Origin: Escherichia coli
GTDB lineage: Bacteria; Pseudomonadota; Gammaproteobacteria; Enterobacterales; Enterobacteriaceae
Reading direction: 5' to 3' (one strand)
Assembly (NCBI RefSeq): GCF_051903065.1
Contig: NZ_CP178438.1
DNA: 64,000 nt
Below, one piece after another: positions 2,787-49,140 of the stretch; position 1 is the stretch's first letter, and each line of letters opens with the position of its first letter. The notes beneath the pieces were generated by a model that saw only the letters and a list, made by a program, of their open reading frames with translations, was not told where the DNA came from and did no database searches. The translations under genes were made by a program, and so were the position numbers.

Positions 2787-5700
2787 TCATGACTGATTAA
2801 AACGAAACAGCGGTAACAGGAAACGTTGCGACTGTTCAACGATGGCCTCCATTGTCTCTGGTGTTAATTGCCGCCAGAGCCGTTGATACCAGATATCATC
2901 ACCTTCGCCACGCACCATCATGTTGCCTTCGTAAGCCTGAAGGAATTTCGTACGGGCTTTTTGCAACGTGGAATCGTCATCCAGCATGGCATCGTTTTGC
3001 GCGTCATAACAGGTTTTTAGCCACGCGCCGCCACTTTCAGGTAACACCAGCAATGGCGCGGACATCCCTTCACGATACCCCTCAATCAGTTGTGAGAGGT
3101 AATGCAAAGCCTGTTCGGCTGCAAGCGGCGGAAAACGCCACTCGCCGTCTTTGCGTAGAAAAAGGCGACTTTCACCATTACCACCGCTGGCACAGTAGAC
3201 AAGGTGTTCCAGCCAAAGTTGCATTCCCTGCGCCACACTTAATAAAGAGGGACGCCAGCGCAACAAGCCATCCGGCTGCACCTGCGGCAACCAGCCAGTT
3301 ATCTGCACACCGTTGCAAGCGAGATCAATTTCCATACTCTGCCCCGGCTGGCGACAGGCAATGACTCTGTCGGCAAGCTGCTGCATCTCCTGGCACTGTG
3401 TTTCCCAGAAAATTTCACCAAAAGCGCCATACGGTAAATCCCCTGCCGCCCGGAAGCGGCGGAACAAGCGTTCGGCATCATCCTGCTCAACCAGTGCATT
3501 CAATAACTGCTGATTGATTTGATAACGGCTAAGTCCTTCCAGAATAAATGGCTCGGTGTCGGGGATTTCGCTGTCTTCGGTACGGAAGTTCACCTGCAAA
3601 CGCATCTGGAAAAATGCCCGCACCGGATGTGCCCAGAATCGTTGTAGCGTTTCCAGCGGCACGGTTTCCGGTAAGGTAAACGGCAGCGGCTGAACAAATT
3701 CAGAATGTGCTTTACCAGCCTGGCTGGCCGCAGGTAGCCATTCACGAGCATAGCTTTGTCGTTCGCCTGGCTGATAGTTTTGTGGATCAAACGGCATTCG
3801 GGTATGGAGGCAAGTAAGATGCGCTTTTACCCTTGCCTCGCTTTCATCACAGTTGAGCGCTTCATCGCCCGGTAGATAATGACTTTGCCCGATGTAGTCG
3901 ATCAGTTCCTGCACCAGTACCGACGGGAAACGTTCACTGTTATCCTGAATGGAACGCCCGATATAGCTGATATAGAGTTTTTGCTGCGCGGAAATTAACG
4001 CTTCCAGGAACAGATAGCGGTCGTCATCGCGACGGCTACGGTCGCCACGCTTCGGTTTCTGGCTCATCAGGTCAAAGCCCAATGGCGCAAGCTGACGTGG
4101 ATAAACGCCGTCGTTCATTCCCAGCAGGCAAACCACTTTGAACGGAATTGAACGCATTGGCATCAGAGTACAAATGTTAACCGGTCCGGCGAGAAAACGC
4201 TGGCTGATACGTTCTTGATCCAGGCGCTGTGCCAGTTCATCACGCAATAGTGACAACGGCACCGCGTCGCCATACTGCGCACCTAAACCTTCGGCGATAA
4301 TCGCCTGCCATTGTTGTTCGATCAGCGTCATCGCCGCTTCGGTTTCCGCATCCGGCAGGAAGAAGGCGTTGAGCATATCGCGACAAACCGGCAACCACTC
4401 TTCCAGCGGACGCTCCTGTGCCAGCCCGCGACGCCAGATGTTTAGCTGCATTAGCAGTGAAGCCAGATGCCCCACCAGTTCTGCAATTAAGCCGCTCGAT
4501 TCATCATAAGGTAGAACCGATTGCCACTCGCCCTGCGCGCTCTCCATCGCGTAGCCCAACAACATACGCGTCAGGCCAAATCGCCAGGTGTGTTGTCCGG
4601 TGGCGGGGAGTTCCAGCTCGCGAACGTTGTCGTCATCTATCCCCCAACGAATGCCGGATTCGTTGACCCACTGACGTAAATAACGCAGCCCTTCTTCGGT
4701 GATGTCAAACCGCGCCGCCAGCACCGGCACATCCAGTAATGCCAGCACGTCTTCCGACACAAAGCGGCTGTCTGGCAACGATAACAGGCTGATAAACGCT
4801 TCAAGTACAGGATGCGACTGCCGCGCCCGACGGTCGGAAATGGCGTAAGGCAGGTAACGATCCGCAGGTGCGCTACCAAACACAGCCTGAATAAACGGAC
4901 TGTAGCTGTCGATATCAGCCACCATCACGATGATGTCGCGCGGAGTAAGTGTCGGGTCTTCTTCCAGCATCGCCAGCAGGCGATCGTGTAAAACTTCAAC
5001 TTCACGCTGCGGGCTATGGCAAACGTGGAAGGTGATACTGCTATCCAGTGGATCAAGCGGACGTTTGTTATCGCTACGGGAAAACTCTTCGATGTTCACA
5101 CCAGCAACGGCGCGGTTTTCCAGTTCCAGAATGTCAGACTGAATGTTATGCAGCAGGTTATCTGGCGTCACATCGACAAAAGCATCCAGCTCCTGGCTGC
5201 TCTCCAGGTCAGAAAGGAGATAAATGTAGTCGCGCCCAAGCTTGCCCCATGAGGCCAGCAGCGGGTTGCCGACATCCTGTTCACCATCGCTGTTAAAGAG
5301 CTGCCCGGCATTTTCGCTGTCGCGAAATAGCGGTAATTCGCGATCTTCAAAACTGTGTCGGCGCTGGCGAGTCAGTAGTTTCGCCAGATAAGCAGGATCT
5401 TTAATGTCGCCCCAGTAATAACGGCAGGGGTTGGTAAACAGGAGATGGATTTCAATATGTTTACCCAGCGCCTGGAGCGCCTGGAGATAAACAGGCGGTA
5501 ACGCGGAAATACCGCATATAAAGACGCGCGAAGGTAACCCCGGCGGGCAGGTCGCCGCGGACTCCAGCGTTTCGATAAAGCGCTGATAGAGATTGGCGCG
5601 GTGCCAGCGCGGTTGTCCGAGTTGATGGGTATATTCCACCAGCGCCTTCCACAACGGCGCTTGCCAGGCCTGTGCCTCTCCCAGCCCTTCAACCAAATGT

Positions 5701-6155
5701 CCTGTTTCCCACTGTGCCAGCCAGTCCGGACGATAGACCAGATACTGGTCAAACAGGTCCGCCGCTTTTGAGGAAAGCTGGAACAGCTTTCGCTTGTCGC
5801 TATCGTCAGTCAGATAATGCCGCAACAGGGTAAAGTCTTCGCGCTCCAGCAATTGCGGCAGCAGAGTCATCAGTTTCCAGCTCATGCTCTGTTTGTTAAA
5901 GGCGCTCTCTTTGGGGATCTCCGGTAACACCCGGACGAACATATCCCAGATAAAGCTCGCAGGCAGCGGAAAATCAATGTTTGCCGCAATACCAAACTTT
6001 TGCGACAGGGTCATTTGCAGCCACTGTGCCATACCGGTACTTTGCACCAGAATCATCTCTGGTTCGAAAGGATCGTCCAGCCGTTCGCGTTCGACAATAA
6101 ACTCCATCAACGCTTCCAGCACGTCCAGACGATTGGAATGGTAGACCCTTAACAT
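2787..6155 (-). CDS. recC: Exodeoxyribonuclease V gamma subunit RecC
   Basis: 1122-aa ORF in track; length and N-terminus MLRVYHSNRLDVLEALM match RecC. Confidence 0.95.
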   Translation of the reverse strand: MLRVYHSNRLDVLEALMEFIVERERLDDPFEPEMILVQSTGMAQWLQMTLSQKFGIAANIDFPLPASFIWDMFVRVLPEIPKESAFNKQSMSWKLMTLLPQLLEREDFTLLRHYLTDDSDKRKLFQLSSKAADLFDQYLVYRPDWLAQWETGHLVEGLGEAQAWQAPLWKALVEYTHQLGQPRWHRANLYQRFIETLESAATCPPGLPSRVFICGISALPPVYLQALQALGKHIEIHLLFTNPCRYYWGDIKDPAYLAKLLTRQRRHSFEDRELPLFRDSENAGQLFNSDGEQDVGNPLLASWGKLGRDYIYLLSDLESSQELDAFVDVTPDNLLHNIQSDILELENRAVAGVNIEEFSRSDNKRPLDPLDSSITFHVCHSPQREVEVLHDRLLAMLEEDPTLTPRDIIVMVADIDSYSPFIQAVFGSAPADRYLPYAISDRRARQSHPVLEAFISLLSLPDSRFVSEDVLALLDVPVLAARFDITEEGLRYLRQWVNESGIRWGIDDDNVRELELPATGQHTWRFGLTRMLLGYAMESAQGEWQSVLPYDESSGLIAELVGHLASLLMQLNIWRRGLAQERPLEEWLPVCRDMLNAFFLPDAETEAAMTLIEQQWQAIIAEGLGAQYGDAVPLSLLRDELAQRLDQERISQRFLAGPVNICTLMPMRSIPFKVVCLLGMNDGVYPRQLAPLGFDLMSQKPKRGDRSRRDDDRYLFLEALISAQQKLYISYIGRSIQDNSERFPSVLVQELIDYIGQSHYLPGDEALNCDESEARVKAHLTCLHTRMPFDPQNYQPGERQSYAREWLPAASQAGKAHSEFVQPLPFTLPETVPLETLQRFWAHPVRAFFQMRLQVNFRTEDSEIPDTEPFILEGLSRYQINQQLLNALVEQDDAERLFRRFRAAGDLPYGAFGEIFWETQCQEMQQLADRVIACRQPGQSMEIDLACNGVQITGWLPQVQPDGLLRWRPSLLSVAQGMQLWLEHLVYCASGGNGESRLFLRKDGEWRFPPLAAEQALHYLSQLIEGYREGMSAPLLVLPESGGAWLKTCYDAQNDAMLDDDSTLQKARTKFLQAYEGNMMVRGEGDDIWYQRLWRQLTPETMEAIVEQSQRFLLPLFRFNQS

Positions 6156-14147: not shown

Positions 14148-14861
14148 ATGTTATTTGCATGGATAACCGATCCTAACGCCTGGCTTGCGCTCGGTACGCT
14201 GACGCTGCTGGAGATCGTTCTTGGGATCGACAATATTATTTTCCTTTCTCTGGTGGTGGCAAAGCTTCCCACAGCACAACGTGCTCATGCGCGCCGTCTG
14301 GGGTTGGCGGGAGCCATGGTTATGCGTCTGGCGCTGCTGGCATCAATCGCCTGGGTTACGCGCCTGACAAATCCGCTTTTTACAATATTCAGTCAGGAAA
14401 TTTCTGCCCGTGACTTGATTCTGCTTCTGGGTGGCTTGTTCCTTATCTGGAAAGCCAGCAAGGAAATCCACGAATCCATTGAAGGTGAAGAAGAAGGGCT
14501 GAAAACACGCGTTTCATCATTCCTCGGCGCTATCGTGCAGATTATGCTGCTGGATATTATCTTCAGCCTCGATTCAGTGATTACCGCTGTGGGTCTGTCA
14601 GATCACCTGTTTATTATGATGGCAGCCGTGGTGATTGCCGTAGGCGTGATGATGTTCGCCGCGCGCTCGATTGGTGATTTTGTCGAACGCCATCCTTCGG
14701 TAAAAATGCTGGCTCTCTCTTTCCTGATTCTGGTGGGCTTTACCCTGATTCTGGAAAGTTTCGACATCCACGTACCGAAAGGTTACATCTACTTCGCGAT
14801 GTTCTTCTCTATTGCGGTTGAAAGCCTCAACCTGATTCGCAACAAAAAGAATCCGCTCTGA
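14148..14861 (+). CDS. ygdQ: TerC-family inner membrane protein
   Basis: 237-aa polytopic membrane ORF following mutH. Confidence 0.85.
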
Positions 14862-14998
14862 TACTCCGTACGCTCTCCTGCGGGAGGGCGTACTCACTCC
14901 TGTTACCCTCACAGTTTAAGATTTTCCTGCTTTCAAGATATATAACGTCGGTTTATAAACAGACTATTATCATAGGTGGGCCAAATGAGGATAACCGG

Positions 14999-15217
14999 AT
15001 GAAAAAATGGGCAGTAATAATTTCTGCAGTCGGACTGGCGTTTGCTGTTTCCGGGTGTTCCAGTGATTACGTCATGGCGACCAAAGATGGCCGTATGATT
15101 TTGACCGATGGAAAACCTGAAATTGATGATGATACCGGGCTGGTGAGTTATCACGATCAGCAAGGTAACGCGATGCAAATTAACCGTGATGATGTTTCGC
15201 AAATAATTGAACGTTAA
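14999..15217 (+). CDS. ygdR: Small lipoprotein YgdR
   Basis: 72-aa ORF with lipoprotein signal [23 protein letters not shown]. Confidence 0.85.
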
Positions 15218-15324
15218 CAAATAAGGTCAGCATCCGGCTGGCCTTAAGATTTTTCTCTTTCCCTTTTCCCTTCCCTCTGCCATTTTTATATTCCTTATGT
15301 CGTGATTATAAAAAGGAAACGGCT

Positions 15325-16365
15325 ATGCAATATCACCGTATACCCCACAGTTCGCTGGAAGTCAGCACGCTGGGGCTTGGCACGATGACGTTTGGTGAAC
15401 AGAACAGCGAAGCCGACGCCCACGCACAACTCGACTATGCCGTCGCTCAGGGCATTAACCTTATCGACGTTGCCGAAATGTACCCAGTACCTCCGCGCCC
15501 CGAAACGCAAGGGTTAACCGAAACCTACGTCGGCAACTGGCTGGCGAAACATGGCAGCCGCGAAAAGTTAATTATCGCCTCCAAAGTGAGCGGACCGTCG
15601 CGCAATAATGACAAGGGCATCCGCCCGGATCAGGCGCTGGATCGGAAGAATATCCGCGAAGCGCTGCATGACAGCCTCAAGCGTCTGCAGACTGATTACC
15701 TCGATCTTTATCAGGTGCACTGGCCGCAGCGCCCAACCAACTGCTTCGGCAAACTCGGTTATAGCTGGACAGATTCTGCGCCTGCGGTTTCGCTGCTGGA
15801 TACGCTGGACGCACTGGCAGAGTACCAACGAGCGGGAAAAATTCGTTATATCGGCGTGTCGAACGAAACTGCATTTGGCGTAATGCGCTACCTGCATCTG
15901 GCGGACAAACACGATCTGCCGCGTATTGTCACCATTCAGAACCCTTACAGTCTGTTAAACCGCAGTTTTGAAGTAGGTCTGGCAGAAGTCAGCCAGTATG
16001 AAGGGGTCGAACTGCTGGCCTATTCGTGCCTGGGTTTCGGCACGCTGACCGGGAAATATCTCAATGGTGCAAAACCCGCTGGCGCACGTAATACGCTCTT
16101 TAGTCGGTTCACCCGCTATAGCGGTGAGCAAACGCAAAAAGCCGTCGCGGCGTATGTTGATATCGCCAGACGTCATGGCCTGGATCCTGCTCAGATGGCG
16201 CTCGCTTTTGTACGTCGTCAACCGTTTGTTGCCAGCACTCTGCTGGGCGCAACCACGATGGAGCAGCTGAAAACTAACGTCGAAAGTTTGCATCTGGAGT
16301 TGAGCGAAGACGTATTAGCTGAAATTGAAGCGGTGCATCAGGTTTATACGTATCCTGCACCATAA
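15325..16365 (+). CDS. tas: Aldo-keto reductase Tas
   Basis: 346-aa ORF; aldo-keto reductase family. Confidence 0.9.
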   Translation: MQYHRIPHSSLEVSTLGLGTMTFGEQNSEADAHAQLDYAVAQGINLIDVAEMYPVPPRPETQGLTETYVGNWLAKHGSREKLIIASKVSGPSRNNDKGIRPDQALDRKNIREALHDSLKRLQTDYLDLYQVHWPQRPTNCFGKLGYSWTDSAPAVSLLDTLDALAEYQRAGKIRYIGVSNETAFGVMRYLHLADKHDLPRIVTIQNPYSLLNRSFEVGLAEVSQYEGVELLAYSCLGFGTLTGKYLNGAKPAGARNTLFSRFTRYSGEQTQKAVAAYVDIARRHGLDPAQMALAFVRRQPFVASTLLGATTMEQLKTNVESLHLELSEDVLAEIEAVHQVYTYPAP

Positions 16366-32230: not shown

Positions 32231-33040
32231 ATGTACTGGATTATTAACGATAATATCGAGTTCTGGCCTGAGCACCGAAAATTAATATCGGTACATAACG
32301 CCGATCTTAACGTCGTTCTGACAACGCCAGCCAGTCGTTGTTTATCACTTCTACTTGAAGCTTTTCCTGATGTGGTTGCACAACAAGATTTTTTCACCAG
32401 AGTCTGGGAAGAAGAAGGTATGCGTGTGCCTACTAACACGTTATATCAGAACATATCCATTATCAGACGCGGATTTCGCGCTGTTGGTGATACTACCCAC
32501 TCGCTTATTGCAACCGTGCCGAGAAGAGGATTCAAGATCCATAATGACATTAACATACAAAATCATGTAATAAACTCGTCAACAGACGCACATACACACA
32601 ATGCCCCACCTGCCATAAAAGTTAATGCGGGATACAAAGAGAGCATTGGTGGCGCAAAGAATTTCAATAACAAAATCCTCAAACATATAAAAAGTTATCT
32701 AATTATGTTGAGCGCATTTGTCATAGGCGCATATTCTGCATATTGGCTATGGAATAATAATCAACCGAAGCCATTTTTCAAGGATTACAAGACTGTTGCG
32801 GAAATTAATGGCTGCCATTTTAATGTAACAGAAGATACAATTGATGGGTTGAAAGAGTTCGATAAATATAAAACACGGATACTGGATTCGGGGATTAACT
32901 GTAAAAAATATCCGTGGTTATACTTCCCTCTTGCAAAATCCTCACCGGGGATGATTGTTATGGCATGCAATAAAAACTATAACCAACATGAAGTGGCAGG
33001 CTGTTTAACCCTGTCTTACCGTGAGGTTAATCGTGATTGA
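32231..33040 (+). CDS. yqeI: ToxR/CadC-like membrane-anchored winged-helix regulator (ETT2-associated)
   Basis: 269-aa ORF: N-terminal winged-helix-like region, one TM segment (ILKHIKSYLIMLSAFVIGAYSAYWLW), periplasmic C-terminus. Confidence 0.75.
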   Translation: MYWIINDNIEFWPEHRKLISVHNADLNVVLTTPASRCLSLLLEAFPDVVAQQDFFTRVWEEEGMRVPTNTLYQNISIIRRGFRAVGDTTHSLIATVPRRGFKIHNDINIQNHVINSSTDAHTHNAPPAIKVNAGYKESIGGAKNFNNKILKHIKSYLIMLSAFVIGAYSAYWLWNNNQPKPFFKDYKTVAEINGCHFNVTEDTIDGLKEFDKYKTRILDSGINCKKYPWLYFPLAKSSPGMIVMACNKNYNQHEVAGCLTLSYREVNRD

Positions 33041-45934: not shown

Positions 45935-47545
45935 CTATTTAATTCCCTCATCATTGATAAGGTTGGACATCTCTTTCAACATGAGAGTCATTGAAGCTTT
46001 CGACCAATTTAGCGGAATGATAGGGCTTGGCGCTTCATGCAAAGTTCCCGACTTGTGGATATAGTTATAGCTTTCGGGAAGTGCCATTTCTGGTACGCTC
46101 CTGCCATTTGCACCAATCATATTCTCGCCTGTTATTTGGGCCAATGATCTATTCATAAATTGCACTGAGTCATTCAAATACTCTTCTTTTCTTGATTCTT
46201 TATAAACAATTGCTGCTGATTTTGCATACCATGAGTCAAAAAACCATTCTGCTTCTGTTGATGGAATGAAGCTCTTTTCTCTTTTTGCATGCGAATTTTG
46301 ATCGGTATCAGTTTTAATATCATTGAACCAAAAATTTGCCGACTGATAATTATCCTTCTCGTATCTTTTTATACCATACGGACCTGCTAGTTTTTTAACT
46401 ATTTTTAGAACTTGCTCTTTTCTTCTGGTGTTTATCTTTGAAAGATTTGCAGGATAAATAACATTAAGTAAAGCCGCATCGCCTTCTCTGTAATGTTTAT
46501 CTTTTTCCAGATAACCTGGGGATTCTCCCCCTAAATCAAGCTGTAACGTTATTCTTTCATAACCTTTATCTATGAGGTGGTTCAACCTCGTTGTTGAAAG
46601 AGTTTCATCCAGTTCATTGACTTTAGCTTCGCGTAGTAAATCAGAGACAAAAACAGAGTCTTTCTTCGAGAGTAGGTTTGACAAACGTTCCAGTCCAGAG
46701 GTCACCAGTGCAACGGAAGATGTGTTTAATCGGGCATCTTCCTCCCACGCTCCGGAATCTTCCATAACATAGAAATTGGCTTTATCCAGATAAGCAATCA
46801 GCAGCGCAACCGATTTTAGTCGGTCACCTTTTTGCCAATCTTCAGCGTTAATAGTACCAGTATTGATTGCTTGTATAAGGAGATCAAGATAAAGACCTAA
46901 CGCATCATTTTGTTTATGGTTCCACAGCTGCGGCTTGCCTTCTTCCTGCACATCTGCCATCACGGGGGAGTTGCTGTCAAATCGGATATGCACAGCATTC
47001 ATTTGCCCGGGAATACCATCCAGTCGTTTTGGGTTGCTAATGATGTCCTGCATCCGCTTAATCTGGTCGGGCGTAGACATATAATCCCACAGGGTGAGCA
47101 GAACCTTTTTTGCGGCTACACTATTTCCCTGGTCTGATACTAATGCCATATAGCCCCATAAACTATCCCTCAGCCAGACAGCATCATAGTGGGTTTCTGC
47201 CGCTGTTTTGTCATCTTCGAAAGTAGAAGCAAGAATAAACGTTCCCCAGGGTTTCTCCGTCAACGTTAACTTTCGTGTGTTTTCTGTTAATGTTAGCAAT
47301 CCTTGAATTTCGTCTTTGGTATAGTGGCTCTTTATTTCATTTTGTAATTTGGCTGAGTGAATCAGAAGACGATAATTAGGATACTTATCTGGATTTAACG
47401 ATAAATAACTTTTATCTGTTGCTGCCCCCGTGGAATTAAGAATGTTAAATACAGATTCACTCGTCACTTCTGCCCCTGTCGCCTGGCATGTGCCGCACGA
47501 AAATATACCAGCGAGCAGAAGAGTTAATGCAGATTTCCCTTTCAT
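45935..47545 (-). CDS. Putative exported glycoside hydrolase family 15-like protein (YgeQ-like), apparently intact
   Basis: About 536-aa ORF from MKGKSALTLLLAGIFSCGTCQA (signal or lipoprotein-like); contains AVWLRDSLWGY, reminiscent of the glucoamylase-type fold. Family assignment is from memory, not a search. Confidence 0.5.
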   Translation of the reverse strand: MKGKSALTLLLAGIFSCGTCQATGAEVTSESVFNILNSTGAATDKSYLSLNPDKYPNYRLLIHSAKLQNEIKSHYTKDEIQGLLTLTENTRKLTLTEKPWGTFILASTFEDDKTAAETHYDAVWLRDSLWGYMALVSDQGNSVAAKKVLLTLWDYMSTPDQIKRMQDIISNPKRLDGIPGQMNAVHIRFDSNSPVMADVQEEGKPQLWNHKQNDALGLYLDLLIQAINTGTINAEDWQKGDRLKSVALLIAYLDKANFYVMEDSGAWEEDARLNTSSVALVTSGLERLSNLLSKKDSVFVSDLLREAKVNELDETLSTTRLNHLIDKGYERITLQLDLGGESPGYLEKDKHYREGDAALLNVIYPANLSKINTRRKEQVLKIVKKLAGPYGIKRYEKDNYQSANFWFNDIKTDTDQNSHAKREKSFIPSTEAEWFFDSWYAKSAAIVYKESRKEEYLNDSVQFMNRSLAQITGENMIGANGRSVPEMALPESYNYIHKSGTLHEAPSPIIPLNWSKASMTLMLKEMSNLINDEGIK

Positions 47546-47778: not shown

Positions 47779-47852
47779 TGGAGCGGGCGAAGGGAATCGA
47801 ACCCTCGTATAGAGCTTGGGAAGCTCTCGTTCTACCATTGAACTACGCCCGC
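47779..47852 (-). tRNA. glyU: tRNA-Gly (anticodon CCC)
   Basis: Reverse complement reads GCGGGCGTAGTTCAATGGTAGAACGAGAGCTTCCCAAGCTCTATACGAGGGTTCGATTCCCTTCGCCCGCTCCA; cloverleaf with CCA end. Confidence 0.95.
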
Positions 47853-47931
47853 TTCGAGATGCGTAAGGCATTATAAACCTTACGCTCTCCTTAGCAAGTG
47901 CCGCGCTGCTGACTGCTGATTAATTCGCCAT

Positions 47932-48686
47932 CAGCATTTTGGCTTGCTGCCCTGCGGCGGCAAGTAACGTAGCGGATCAATTGCCGTTGCACGGTAACGA
48001 ATCTGGAAATGCAGGCGAACAGATGCCGCATCCGTGCTCCCCATGGTGGCGATTTTTTACCCAGCCTTCACGCTTTGCCCATTATTTACCAGCATCGTGT
48101 CATTATGGGCGTAAGCCGTAATGTAATCTTCACTGTGTTTAATCATGATGAGATTACCGTAGCCACGCAGCTGGTTGCCCACATACACCACCTTTCCTGC
48201 ACCCGCGGCGTAAATAGGTGTACCCCGTGGAGCTGAGATATCAATCCCTTTATTGCCGCCATCTGCTGTCGAATACGGCATGATAACTTTCCCTGTCGTT
48301 GGCCATAACCAACAACGTTGCCCTACTGGCGGCCAGGAAGATTTCGGTACCGCTGATGACGGTGTAACCGATGCGGTTTTGGTCGTTGATTTGGCGGTTG
48401 ATTTACGTGTACTACTGCTACTTTTCGCCCCACCCAGTTTTAGTTTCTGACCAACTTCAATGGTGTAAGGGGGGGAAATGCCGTTCAGTCGCGCCAGCTC
48501 TTTTACGCTGGTTCCCGTGGTGCGCGAAATACGATATACCGTATCCCCCCGTTTCACGGTGTAAACGGAGCCGGAATACGTTCCTGTATCGGATGATTTG
48601 CTACCCGAACAGCCCACCAAAAGCAGTCCAACCGATAACAACATCACGATACCCAGAGATTTTTTATTCAGGCGTCCCGCACTCAA
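47932..48686 (-). pseudogene. ygeR: LysM/M23-peptidase lipoprotein YgeR interrupted by an in-frame TAA
   Basis: Probable TTG start (AGGAAAG upstream) giving MSAGRLNKKSLGIVMLLSVGLLLVGCSG. Frame stops at 48057-48059 after ...NNGQSVKAG. The next 34 in-frame codons encode [41 protein letters not shown], the conserved M23 C-terminus. Confidence 0.75.
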
Positions 48687-49140
48687 AATCTTTCCTCGCT
48701 TAAAAAACAAGACGCCATATCATAGCAGCCAGCCTCTTGATACCCAATCTCTTGCTTCTGGAAAAACGCGGTAATAGAGAAAGAGGTTAATTTCATTTGG
48801 CAAAGGGAAGTATCATCAGCAAAATATTCACTGTAGAGGTATCGAATTTCCTGACTTTTTTACCCTATTTCCCATCCTGATGCGTAATAATCCCAATTTA
48901 TCACATTGATTTTATCGCCACTCATATTGATACGTATCACTGCCCCTATTCAGAGTCCTGTTTCGTATCATATCTGTGTTTTTTTAACGTCATCACACTT
49001 CCTTCCTCCCCTAACGCTTATCGTCGTTTCTGGCGTAAATCTTGCCTGCTTAGACTAAATCTTTGCCATAAGAACCAAATGTTCAAATCGAGGGGATTTC
49101 TATGGAAGCGCGGGAAGCAACCGCTACGGGTGAATCATGC

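Follow-up and report, generated by a model that had tools for sequence, protein, structure and literature searches.

The outer-membrane lipoprotein ActS of Escherichia coli K-12 (YgeR, b2865) has LysM and LytM domains and activates the amidases AmiC, AmiA and AmiB. In the stretch of E. coli DNA analysed here (64,000 bases, hereafter the window), the gene at the same locus is interrupted by an in-frame TAA. The locus thus raises the question of whether this stop codon is a genuine, inherited lesion and, if so, how much of ActS function would be left in the strains that carry it.

The actS locus and its reading frame

In K-12, actS (formerly ygeR, b2865) lies between xdhA and glyU. The arrangement in the window is identical: transfer of the annotation of the genome 23CRST027, together with the K-12 map, places a single gene between xdhA and glyU. 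The initial assignment of ygeR to the chromosomal backbone, made from the sequence before any comparison, is supported by this position. Of 5,426 complete E. coli genomes, 5,413 contain a match to the actS stretch, annotated there as "amidase activator ActS". The full 756-nt frame is located on the minus strand at 47931..48686 and runs from a TTG start (48686..48684) to the original TGA (47933..47931), so that the coding sequence ends at 47931 and not at 47932, as first given. The frame has the same length as K-12 b2865 (756 nt, no indels), and sequence comparison revealed eight substitutions between the two. Apart from the stop, the window gene differs from that of K-12 by seven nucleotides and three amino acids (A24V, L50V and I92S).

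The part that is still translated comprises 209 codons (48060..48686, minus strand) and ends with ...NNGQSVKAG. It takes in the signal peptide with its lipobox, LysM and the linker, and it ends two thirds of the way through the LytM/M23 domain. As read from the sequence, the lipoprotein signal peptide (...LLLVGC(26)SG) lies 5′ of the stop; its lipobox cysteine, Cys26 of the L-V-G-C motif (48609..48611, minus strand), is intact in the translation. ActS itself has been assigned as a lipoprotein (PMC8360153). The LysM peptidoglycan-binding domain (residues 42-84; 48435..48563, minus strand) is intact except for L50V; Pfam PF01476 matched it with E = 6e-16 and was recovered on the same N-terminal residues of the 209-aa product with E = 4.5e-16. 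The Peptidase_M23 (LytM) coding region corresponds to residues 145-238 of the read-through product (PF01551; 47973..48254, minus strand) and is broken by the stop. Both Pfam assignments, LysM at 42-84 and Peptidase_M23 at 145-238, agree with the earlier description of YgeR as a LysM-M23 lipoprotein.

Downstream of the stop, an orphaned 3′ segment of 41 codons (residues 211-251; 47934..48056, minus strand) continues in the same frame. Its 123 nt are open up to the TGA at 47933..47931 and hold no further lesion, and at the protein level it equals the intact alleles. The number of codons that follow the stop, previously counted as 34, is 41 (48056..47934).

The premature stop codon and its ancestral state

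The premature TAA occupies codon 210 on the minus strand (48057..48059, read as 48059..48057), exactly where the sequence-only reading had placed the interruption of the ygeR frame. Its minus-strand context is ...GTG AAG GCT GGG TAA AAA ATC GCC ACC ATG.... The nonsense change is a C>T transition at nucleotide 628 of actS, which converts Gln210 into a stop (CAA>TAA, Q210*). A CAA-to-TAA substitution had been suggested at the outset, and alignment confirmed it: codon 210 is CAA (Gln) in K-12 MG1655, XH990 and O157:H16 Santai. The closest intact alleles, those of XH990 and O157:H16 Santai, differ from the window actS at two sites only, codon 210 and codon 50. The idea that reference YgeR proteins might naturally end at ...SVKAG did not hold, as these proteins have 251 aa and a different end.

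The 415 nt upstream of actS are identical to those of XH990, which carries an intact allele. Because of this identity, and because the gene is otherwise near-identical to intact alleles, the nonsense codon is the only plausible inactivating lesion in the actS sequence. Promoter or start-site damage as an added cause of inactivation was ruled out by the same upstream identity.

Compared to K-12, the upstream stretch (window 48687-49101) has substitutions at five sites and an A-run that is longer by one A. GGAAGTT>GGAAATT and CAGCG>CAGTG, two of these changes, are located ~140-170 nt 5′ of the TTG, near the putative sigma-E promoter (PMC8360153). The upstream changes are common to XH990 with its intact actS, which indicates natural variation.

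Distribution and origin of the Q210* allele

In three complete genomes, the PGAP annotation of RefSeq records an "internal stop" in actS and calls the gene a pseudogene. Two of these genomes, 23CRST027 and 23CRST031, come from human faeces in Ecuador, and the third, ECNB21-M121, from meat in China. The TAA allele is therefore rare, being present in 3 of 5,426 complete E. coli genomes, all of one lineage. Along its whole 64,000 bases, the window is collinear with 23CRST027 and departs from it at three SNPs; it differs from 23CRST031 at 57486 and by a 1-bp indel in IS903B. Since it is identical to neither of the Ecuadorian genomes, the window is an additional assembly from the same clone group, independent of these two.

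The three SNPs that separate the window from 23CRST027 are at 32595, 54879 and 57486, one each in yqeI, the ygeV-ygeW intergenic region and dpaL. The yqeI and dpaL proteins of both Ecuadorian genomes have very recent accessions (WP_497751829.1 and WP_497751830.1). Both genomes also share alleles that are absent from the window, at least at 57486.

Beyond the complete genomes, the exact 209-aa product (protein P0002) was found on 165 contigs in NCBI, ENA and Logan assemblies, of which 142 encode the form with Leu50 and 23 the form with Val50, which is that of the window. All of the fetched carrier loci (12 of 12) had TAA at codon 210 on the same local haplotype, and no other change in actS was observed in these 12 loci besides codon 50. 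The sense codon that resequencing might have restored did not appear; TAA is present in many independent assemblies. The literature on the names of the carrier strains yielded only incidental mentions of ECNB21-M121, with no sequence type or phenotype.

A 61-mer centred on the TAA gave three exact matches in the complete genomes, compared to 411 for the same 61-mer with CAA. In the K-12-type background, marked by ACT at codon 214, the TAA 61-mer had no exact match and the CAA version had 2,811; independent recurrence of the same stop was thus not found in that background. Among 4,797 flanking bases, the L50V site is the single difference between ECNB21-M121 and the window, whereas XH990 and Santai show 16-17 flanking differences before their sequences part at a different island. 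In a comparison over 8.4 kb, the best complete genome besides the three carriers reached only 99.7% identity, and the carriers were separated by no more than one private SNP in about 3.4 kb. Because the flanks are near-identical among carriers and the TAA 61-mer is confined to its own background, the sequences indicate that Q210* arose once and was inherited vertically within one E. coli lineage.

Codon 50 (48537..48539, minus strand) is GTA (Val) in the window and CTA (Leu) in all other alleles. The change lies inside the LysM domain and is restricted to the sub-branch that includes the window. As carriers of TAA with Leu50 (142 contigs) outnumber those of TAA with Val50 (23), L50V is later than the stop, an order that weakly (n = 1) fits relaxed constraint. 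Moreover, the carriers vary beyond glyU: some have the full ygeQ/ETT2 arrangement, others a deletion associated with IS903B, and others again an island that encodes a 404-aa integrase. Given these differences, the lineage has had time to diversify while keeping the stop.

RefSeq already flags the gene as a pseudogene. Ordinary lineage-specific E. coli pseudogenes, labelled "internal stop" by PGAP, combine a nonsense substitution in a redundant gene with clonal distribution and an otherwise intact frame, and Q210* actS does not differ from them.

Consequences for the LytM domain

Compared to K-12 ActS, the product of the window gene, a PGAP pseudogene, stops at codon 210 and lacks residues 210-251, i.e. 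42 of 251 residues. PF01551 matched the read-through product with E = 1.1e-32 over model positions 3-96 of 96, and the truncated product over positions 3-66, the last 30 of the 96 positions being gone. The loss of the M23 C-terminus proposed in the sequence-only reading is therefore substantiated by Pfam, with the C-terminal third of the domain cut off. A similar picture was given by the NCBIfam ActS equivalog NF040883, whose curated cut-off for membership is a minimum whole-protein score of 375 bits. The read-through product scored 451.2 bits, whereas the truncated product scored 349 bits, below the cut-off, and covered profile positions 3-200 of 242. By sequence comparison, the locus is actS by descent, and its predicted product is not a complete ActS.

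In alignments with solved LytM domains, among them those of DipM, EnvC and LytM, the ActS residues covered are about 120-246. We used an AlphaFold model only to place the secondary structure in the better-scoring LytM region; the model was built from a 5-sequence alignment and had a mean pLDDT of 60.8, with values of about 70-85 in LytM (residues 151-240). In this model, the strands 211-214, 223-231 and 234-236, as well as the helix 238-241, are all predicted after the stop.

The structural model for amidase activation is the LytM domain of EnvC (PDB 4BH5, 6TPI and 8C0J), which has a degenerate LytM fold, as does ActS. EnvC is a periplasmic coiled-coil protein under FtsEX control and, unlike ActS, is not a lipoprotein. 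The groove of its LytM domain binds the amidase interaction helix (PMC10268282). Six EnvC residues, Lys321, Val324, Tyr350, Val353, Tyr401 and Arg405, are required for amidase activation (PMC10214136), and the groove that receives the amidase is formed by a large β-sheet to which Tyr401 and Arg405 belong (PMC10336132, PMC10268282). Lys321, Tyr350 and Arg405 are conserved in ActS as Lys146, Tyr176 and Arg230, whereas Tyr401 corresponds to His226. In the alignment with EnvC, ActS His226 (48011..48009) and Arg230 (47999..47997) lie opposite Tyr401 and Arg405, on the "HFQIR" strand (47997..48011, minus strand), which follows the stop. Hence, two of the six mapped EnvC activation positions fall in the untranslated tail of the Q210* allele, and the truncated product has no complete LytM domain with counterparts of EnvC Tyr401 and Arg405.

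His226 is also one of the three active-site residues kept in ActS (Asp149, His194 and His226; PMC8360153). The domain had been introduced as an M23 peptidase domain. Its truncation stands, but the ActS domain is catalytically degenerate (PMC8360153), so the part lost would be an activator surface and not a peptidase. Even intact ActS lacks the motif set of active M23/LytM metallopeptidases (HxxxD, the catalytic His and HxH), as it has NKGID in place of HxxxD and RLH in place of HxH, and no hydrolase activity of ActS was detected (PMC8360153).

NlpD, the main AmiC activator, is a paralogous LysM-LytM lipoprotein with the same domain architecture. The LytM domains of ActS and NlpD are 65% identical (PMC8360153), and the ActS segment removed by the stop (KIATMGST...RLHFQIRY...PLRYLP) is almost identical in NlpD.

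Predicted loss of ActS function

Sequence comparison and the structure model lead us to propose that a genuine inherited nonsense mutation has, very probably, made actS a pseudogene in one E. coli lineage, with likely loss of ActS function. The promoter region, the TTG start, the lipoprotein signal and the LysM domain (except L50V) match those of strains with an intact gene, which suggests that a 209-residue lipoprotein precursor is probably still made. This product would be devoid of the last 42 residues, and with them of three predicted β-strands of the LytM core, His226 and Arg230. Such a fragment should be unable to build the groove for amidase binding; misfolding or degradation is its probable fate, and the ActS-dependent activation of AmiC, AmiA and AmiB would be lost. 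Loss of the amidase-activator function of ActS is likely in terms of both the sequence and the model. Published activation assays cover full-length ActS and LysM-deleted or D149A variants only (PMC8360153, PMC9238320).

As for the phenotype, single ΔygeR cells were reported to separate normally, even at pH 5.2, and defects were observed only when nlpD and envC were also deleted (bioRxiv 10.1101/2020.10.19.344754). In 23CRST027, which is near-identical to the window, envC is annotated as full length and the nlpD DNA encodes the full 379-aa protein, identical to that of K-12; NlpD is intact there and would be able to cover for the lost ActS. Because the single ΔygeR mutant is normal and both nlpD and envC are intact in 23CRST027, an overt phenotype is not expected. 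Cells should divide normally, and a silent or conditionally weak loss of function is the most likely outcome. The initial suggestion that the truncation could matter for cell separation must be toned down in view of the normal separation of the single ygeR deletion mutant (bioRxiv 10.1101/2020.10.19.344754).

ActS was described as poorly expressed or non-functional in unstressed cells (PMC8360153), and its main importance seems to lie in envelope stress (PMC8360153, PMC9238320). Effects of the loss are likely to be confined to outer-membrane or acid stress in combination with other defects. That the allele persists in far more than a hundred assemblies is consistent with a loss that is neutral or nearly so.

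We also considered a second lesion, in nlpD, since PGAP calls a 362-aa protein in 23CRST027 (WP_237161028.1) with its start inside the signal peptide. This is a start-site call only, and the candidate was rejected. The annotation artefact, at 14456-15595 of the fetched 23CRST027 locus, could be mistaken for a lesion. The 23CRST027 nlpD has 12 base differences from K-12 (11 in the gene and one upstream), and the protein is unchanged.

Alternative explanations

The 209-residue fragment might keep or gain a function, either as a LysM lipoprotein that binds septal peptidoglycan and competes with NlpD, or in a role independent of AmiC. Such a function would draw on the intact signal peptide, lipobox and LysM domain and on the unchanged promoter region, and it would be consistent with the persistence of the allele in many isolates. 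ActS does have a second, AmiC-independent role, the suppression of mepS defects, for which LytM is needed and Asp149 and LysM are not (PMC9238320). This second function, however, maps to LytM alone, as seen with the actS-lytM construct (PMC9238320), and LytM is the broken domain. About one third of it is missing, including the long central strand, a loss that normally prevents folding. The L50V substitution within LysM, which followed the stop, also speaks weakly (n = 1) for relaxed constraint on the fragment, and neutrality explains the persistence equally well, given that the single knockout is without phenotype (bioRxiv 10.1101/2020.10.19.344754). Judged by sequence alone, the undamaged tail would look the same after recent neutral decay as under a retained role. 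On balance, we regard a functional fragment as improbable.

A related proposal accepts the loss of actS but takes it to have been selected, and not neutral, in a lineage that met antibiotics or other conditions damaging to the envelope. When LPS transport or Lpp detachment is impaired, e.g. in LPS-transport/ldtF mutants, deletion of actS spares the cells from lysis by the amidases (PMC8360153). If true, a selected loss would help explain how the allele reached far more than a hundred assemblies from two or more continents. Specific support was not found, and in the 61-mer search the same stop was not recurrent in the K-12-type background; we consider selection a decidedly improbable cause.

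Full-length ActS could, in principle, still be made by read-through of the stop codon or by an ochre suppressor tRNA, since the reading frame stays open and without damage through the 41 downstream codons. Against such a route, E. coli terminates more efficiently at UAA than at the other stop codons, and natural isolates seldom carry ochre suppressors. Moreover, no recoding signal is evident around the site, and the only nearby tRNA is an ordinary tRNA-Gly(CCC). An intact tail is also what is expected for a young pseudogene, in agreement with the few private SNPs among the carriers (at most one in about 3.4 kb). Read-through thus appears very unlikely.

Finally, a sequencing or assembly error in a really intact actS can draw only on the general experience that a lone internal stop in a conserved gene is at times a base-calling mistake, with nothing specific to this site, and it is excluded for practical purposes and effectively refuted by the TAA in the three complete genomes from Ecuador and China, the window itself, the 165 contigs and every fetched locus, as a substitution (not a homopolymer-length error) on one consistent haplotype.

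The preferred explanation therefore remains a genuine, inherited nonsense mutation with likely loss of ActS function.

Genomic neighbourhood of actS

The glyU gene for tRNA-Gly(CCC) is located immediately downstream of actS (47779..47852, minus strand; ARAGORN and annotation). Between the actS stop and glyU we found a promoter-like site, TTGCTA-16-TATAAT (47870..47897, minus strand), which matches the consensus at 10 of 12 positions. The 152-nt stretch between the actS stop and the tRNA differs from K-12 by one base. The putative promoter suggests that glyU is not reliant on read-through transcription from actS. A polar effect of the premature stop on glyU was considered unlikely in view of this promoter-like site and the near-identity of the stretch to K-12.

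glyU also appears to be an integration site. In some TAA carriers it is followed, from about position 3410 of the fetched loci, by an island with a 404-aa phage-type integrase, and not by ygeQ/ETT2. XH990 and Santai, with intact actS, carry a different integrase of roughly 647 aa after glyU. Carriers of the integrase island occur in both the Leu50 and Val50 sub-branches, which points to repeated gain and loss or to recombination.

In the window, the ygeQ position (45689-47545) holds a full-length gene for a 536-aa glycoside hydrolase of family 15, whereas the K-12 ygeQ is shortened (795 nt). A gene for a 59-aa toxin of the GhoT/OrtT family adjoins the hydrolase gene. The ETT2 type III secretion island is degraded (window 36062-39659): ygeH is shortened by IS903B (transposase at 37396-38364), and the annotation of 23CRST027 lists the adjacent gene for the ATPase SctN (sctN, 38382-39659) as a pseudogene that has an internal stop of its own. 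In ECNB21-M121 (fetched locus 4216-5923; cf. window 45935-47545), IS903B lies directly after a truncated ygeQ and the ETT2 genes are absent. This arrangement looks like an IS-associated deletion, and the lineage would thus contain at least two different IS903B-linked rearrangements in this region.

Significance

The Q210* allele would make one E. coli lineage a natural actS null or near-null, which matters little and opens no new question. A possible use is that of a natural strain with NlpD and EnvC carrying all activation, for studies of amidase regulation, and Q210* could also serve as a clonal typing marker. For the biology of E. coli, the allele suggests that strains outside the laboratory can do without ActS, which agrees with the absence of a phenotype published for single mutants.
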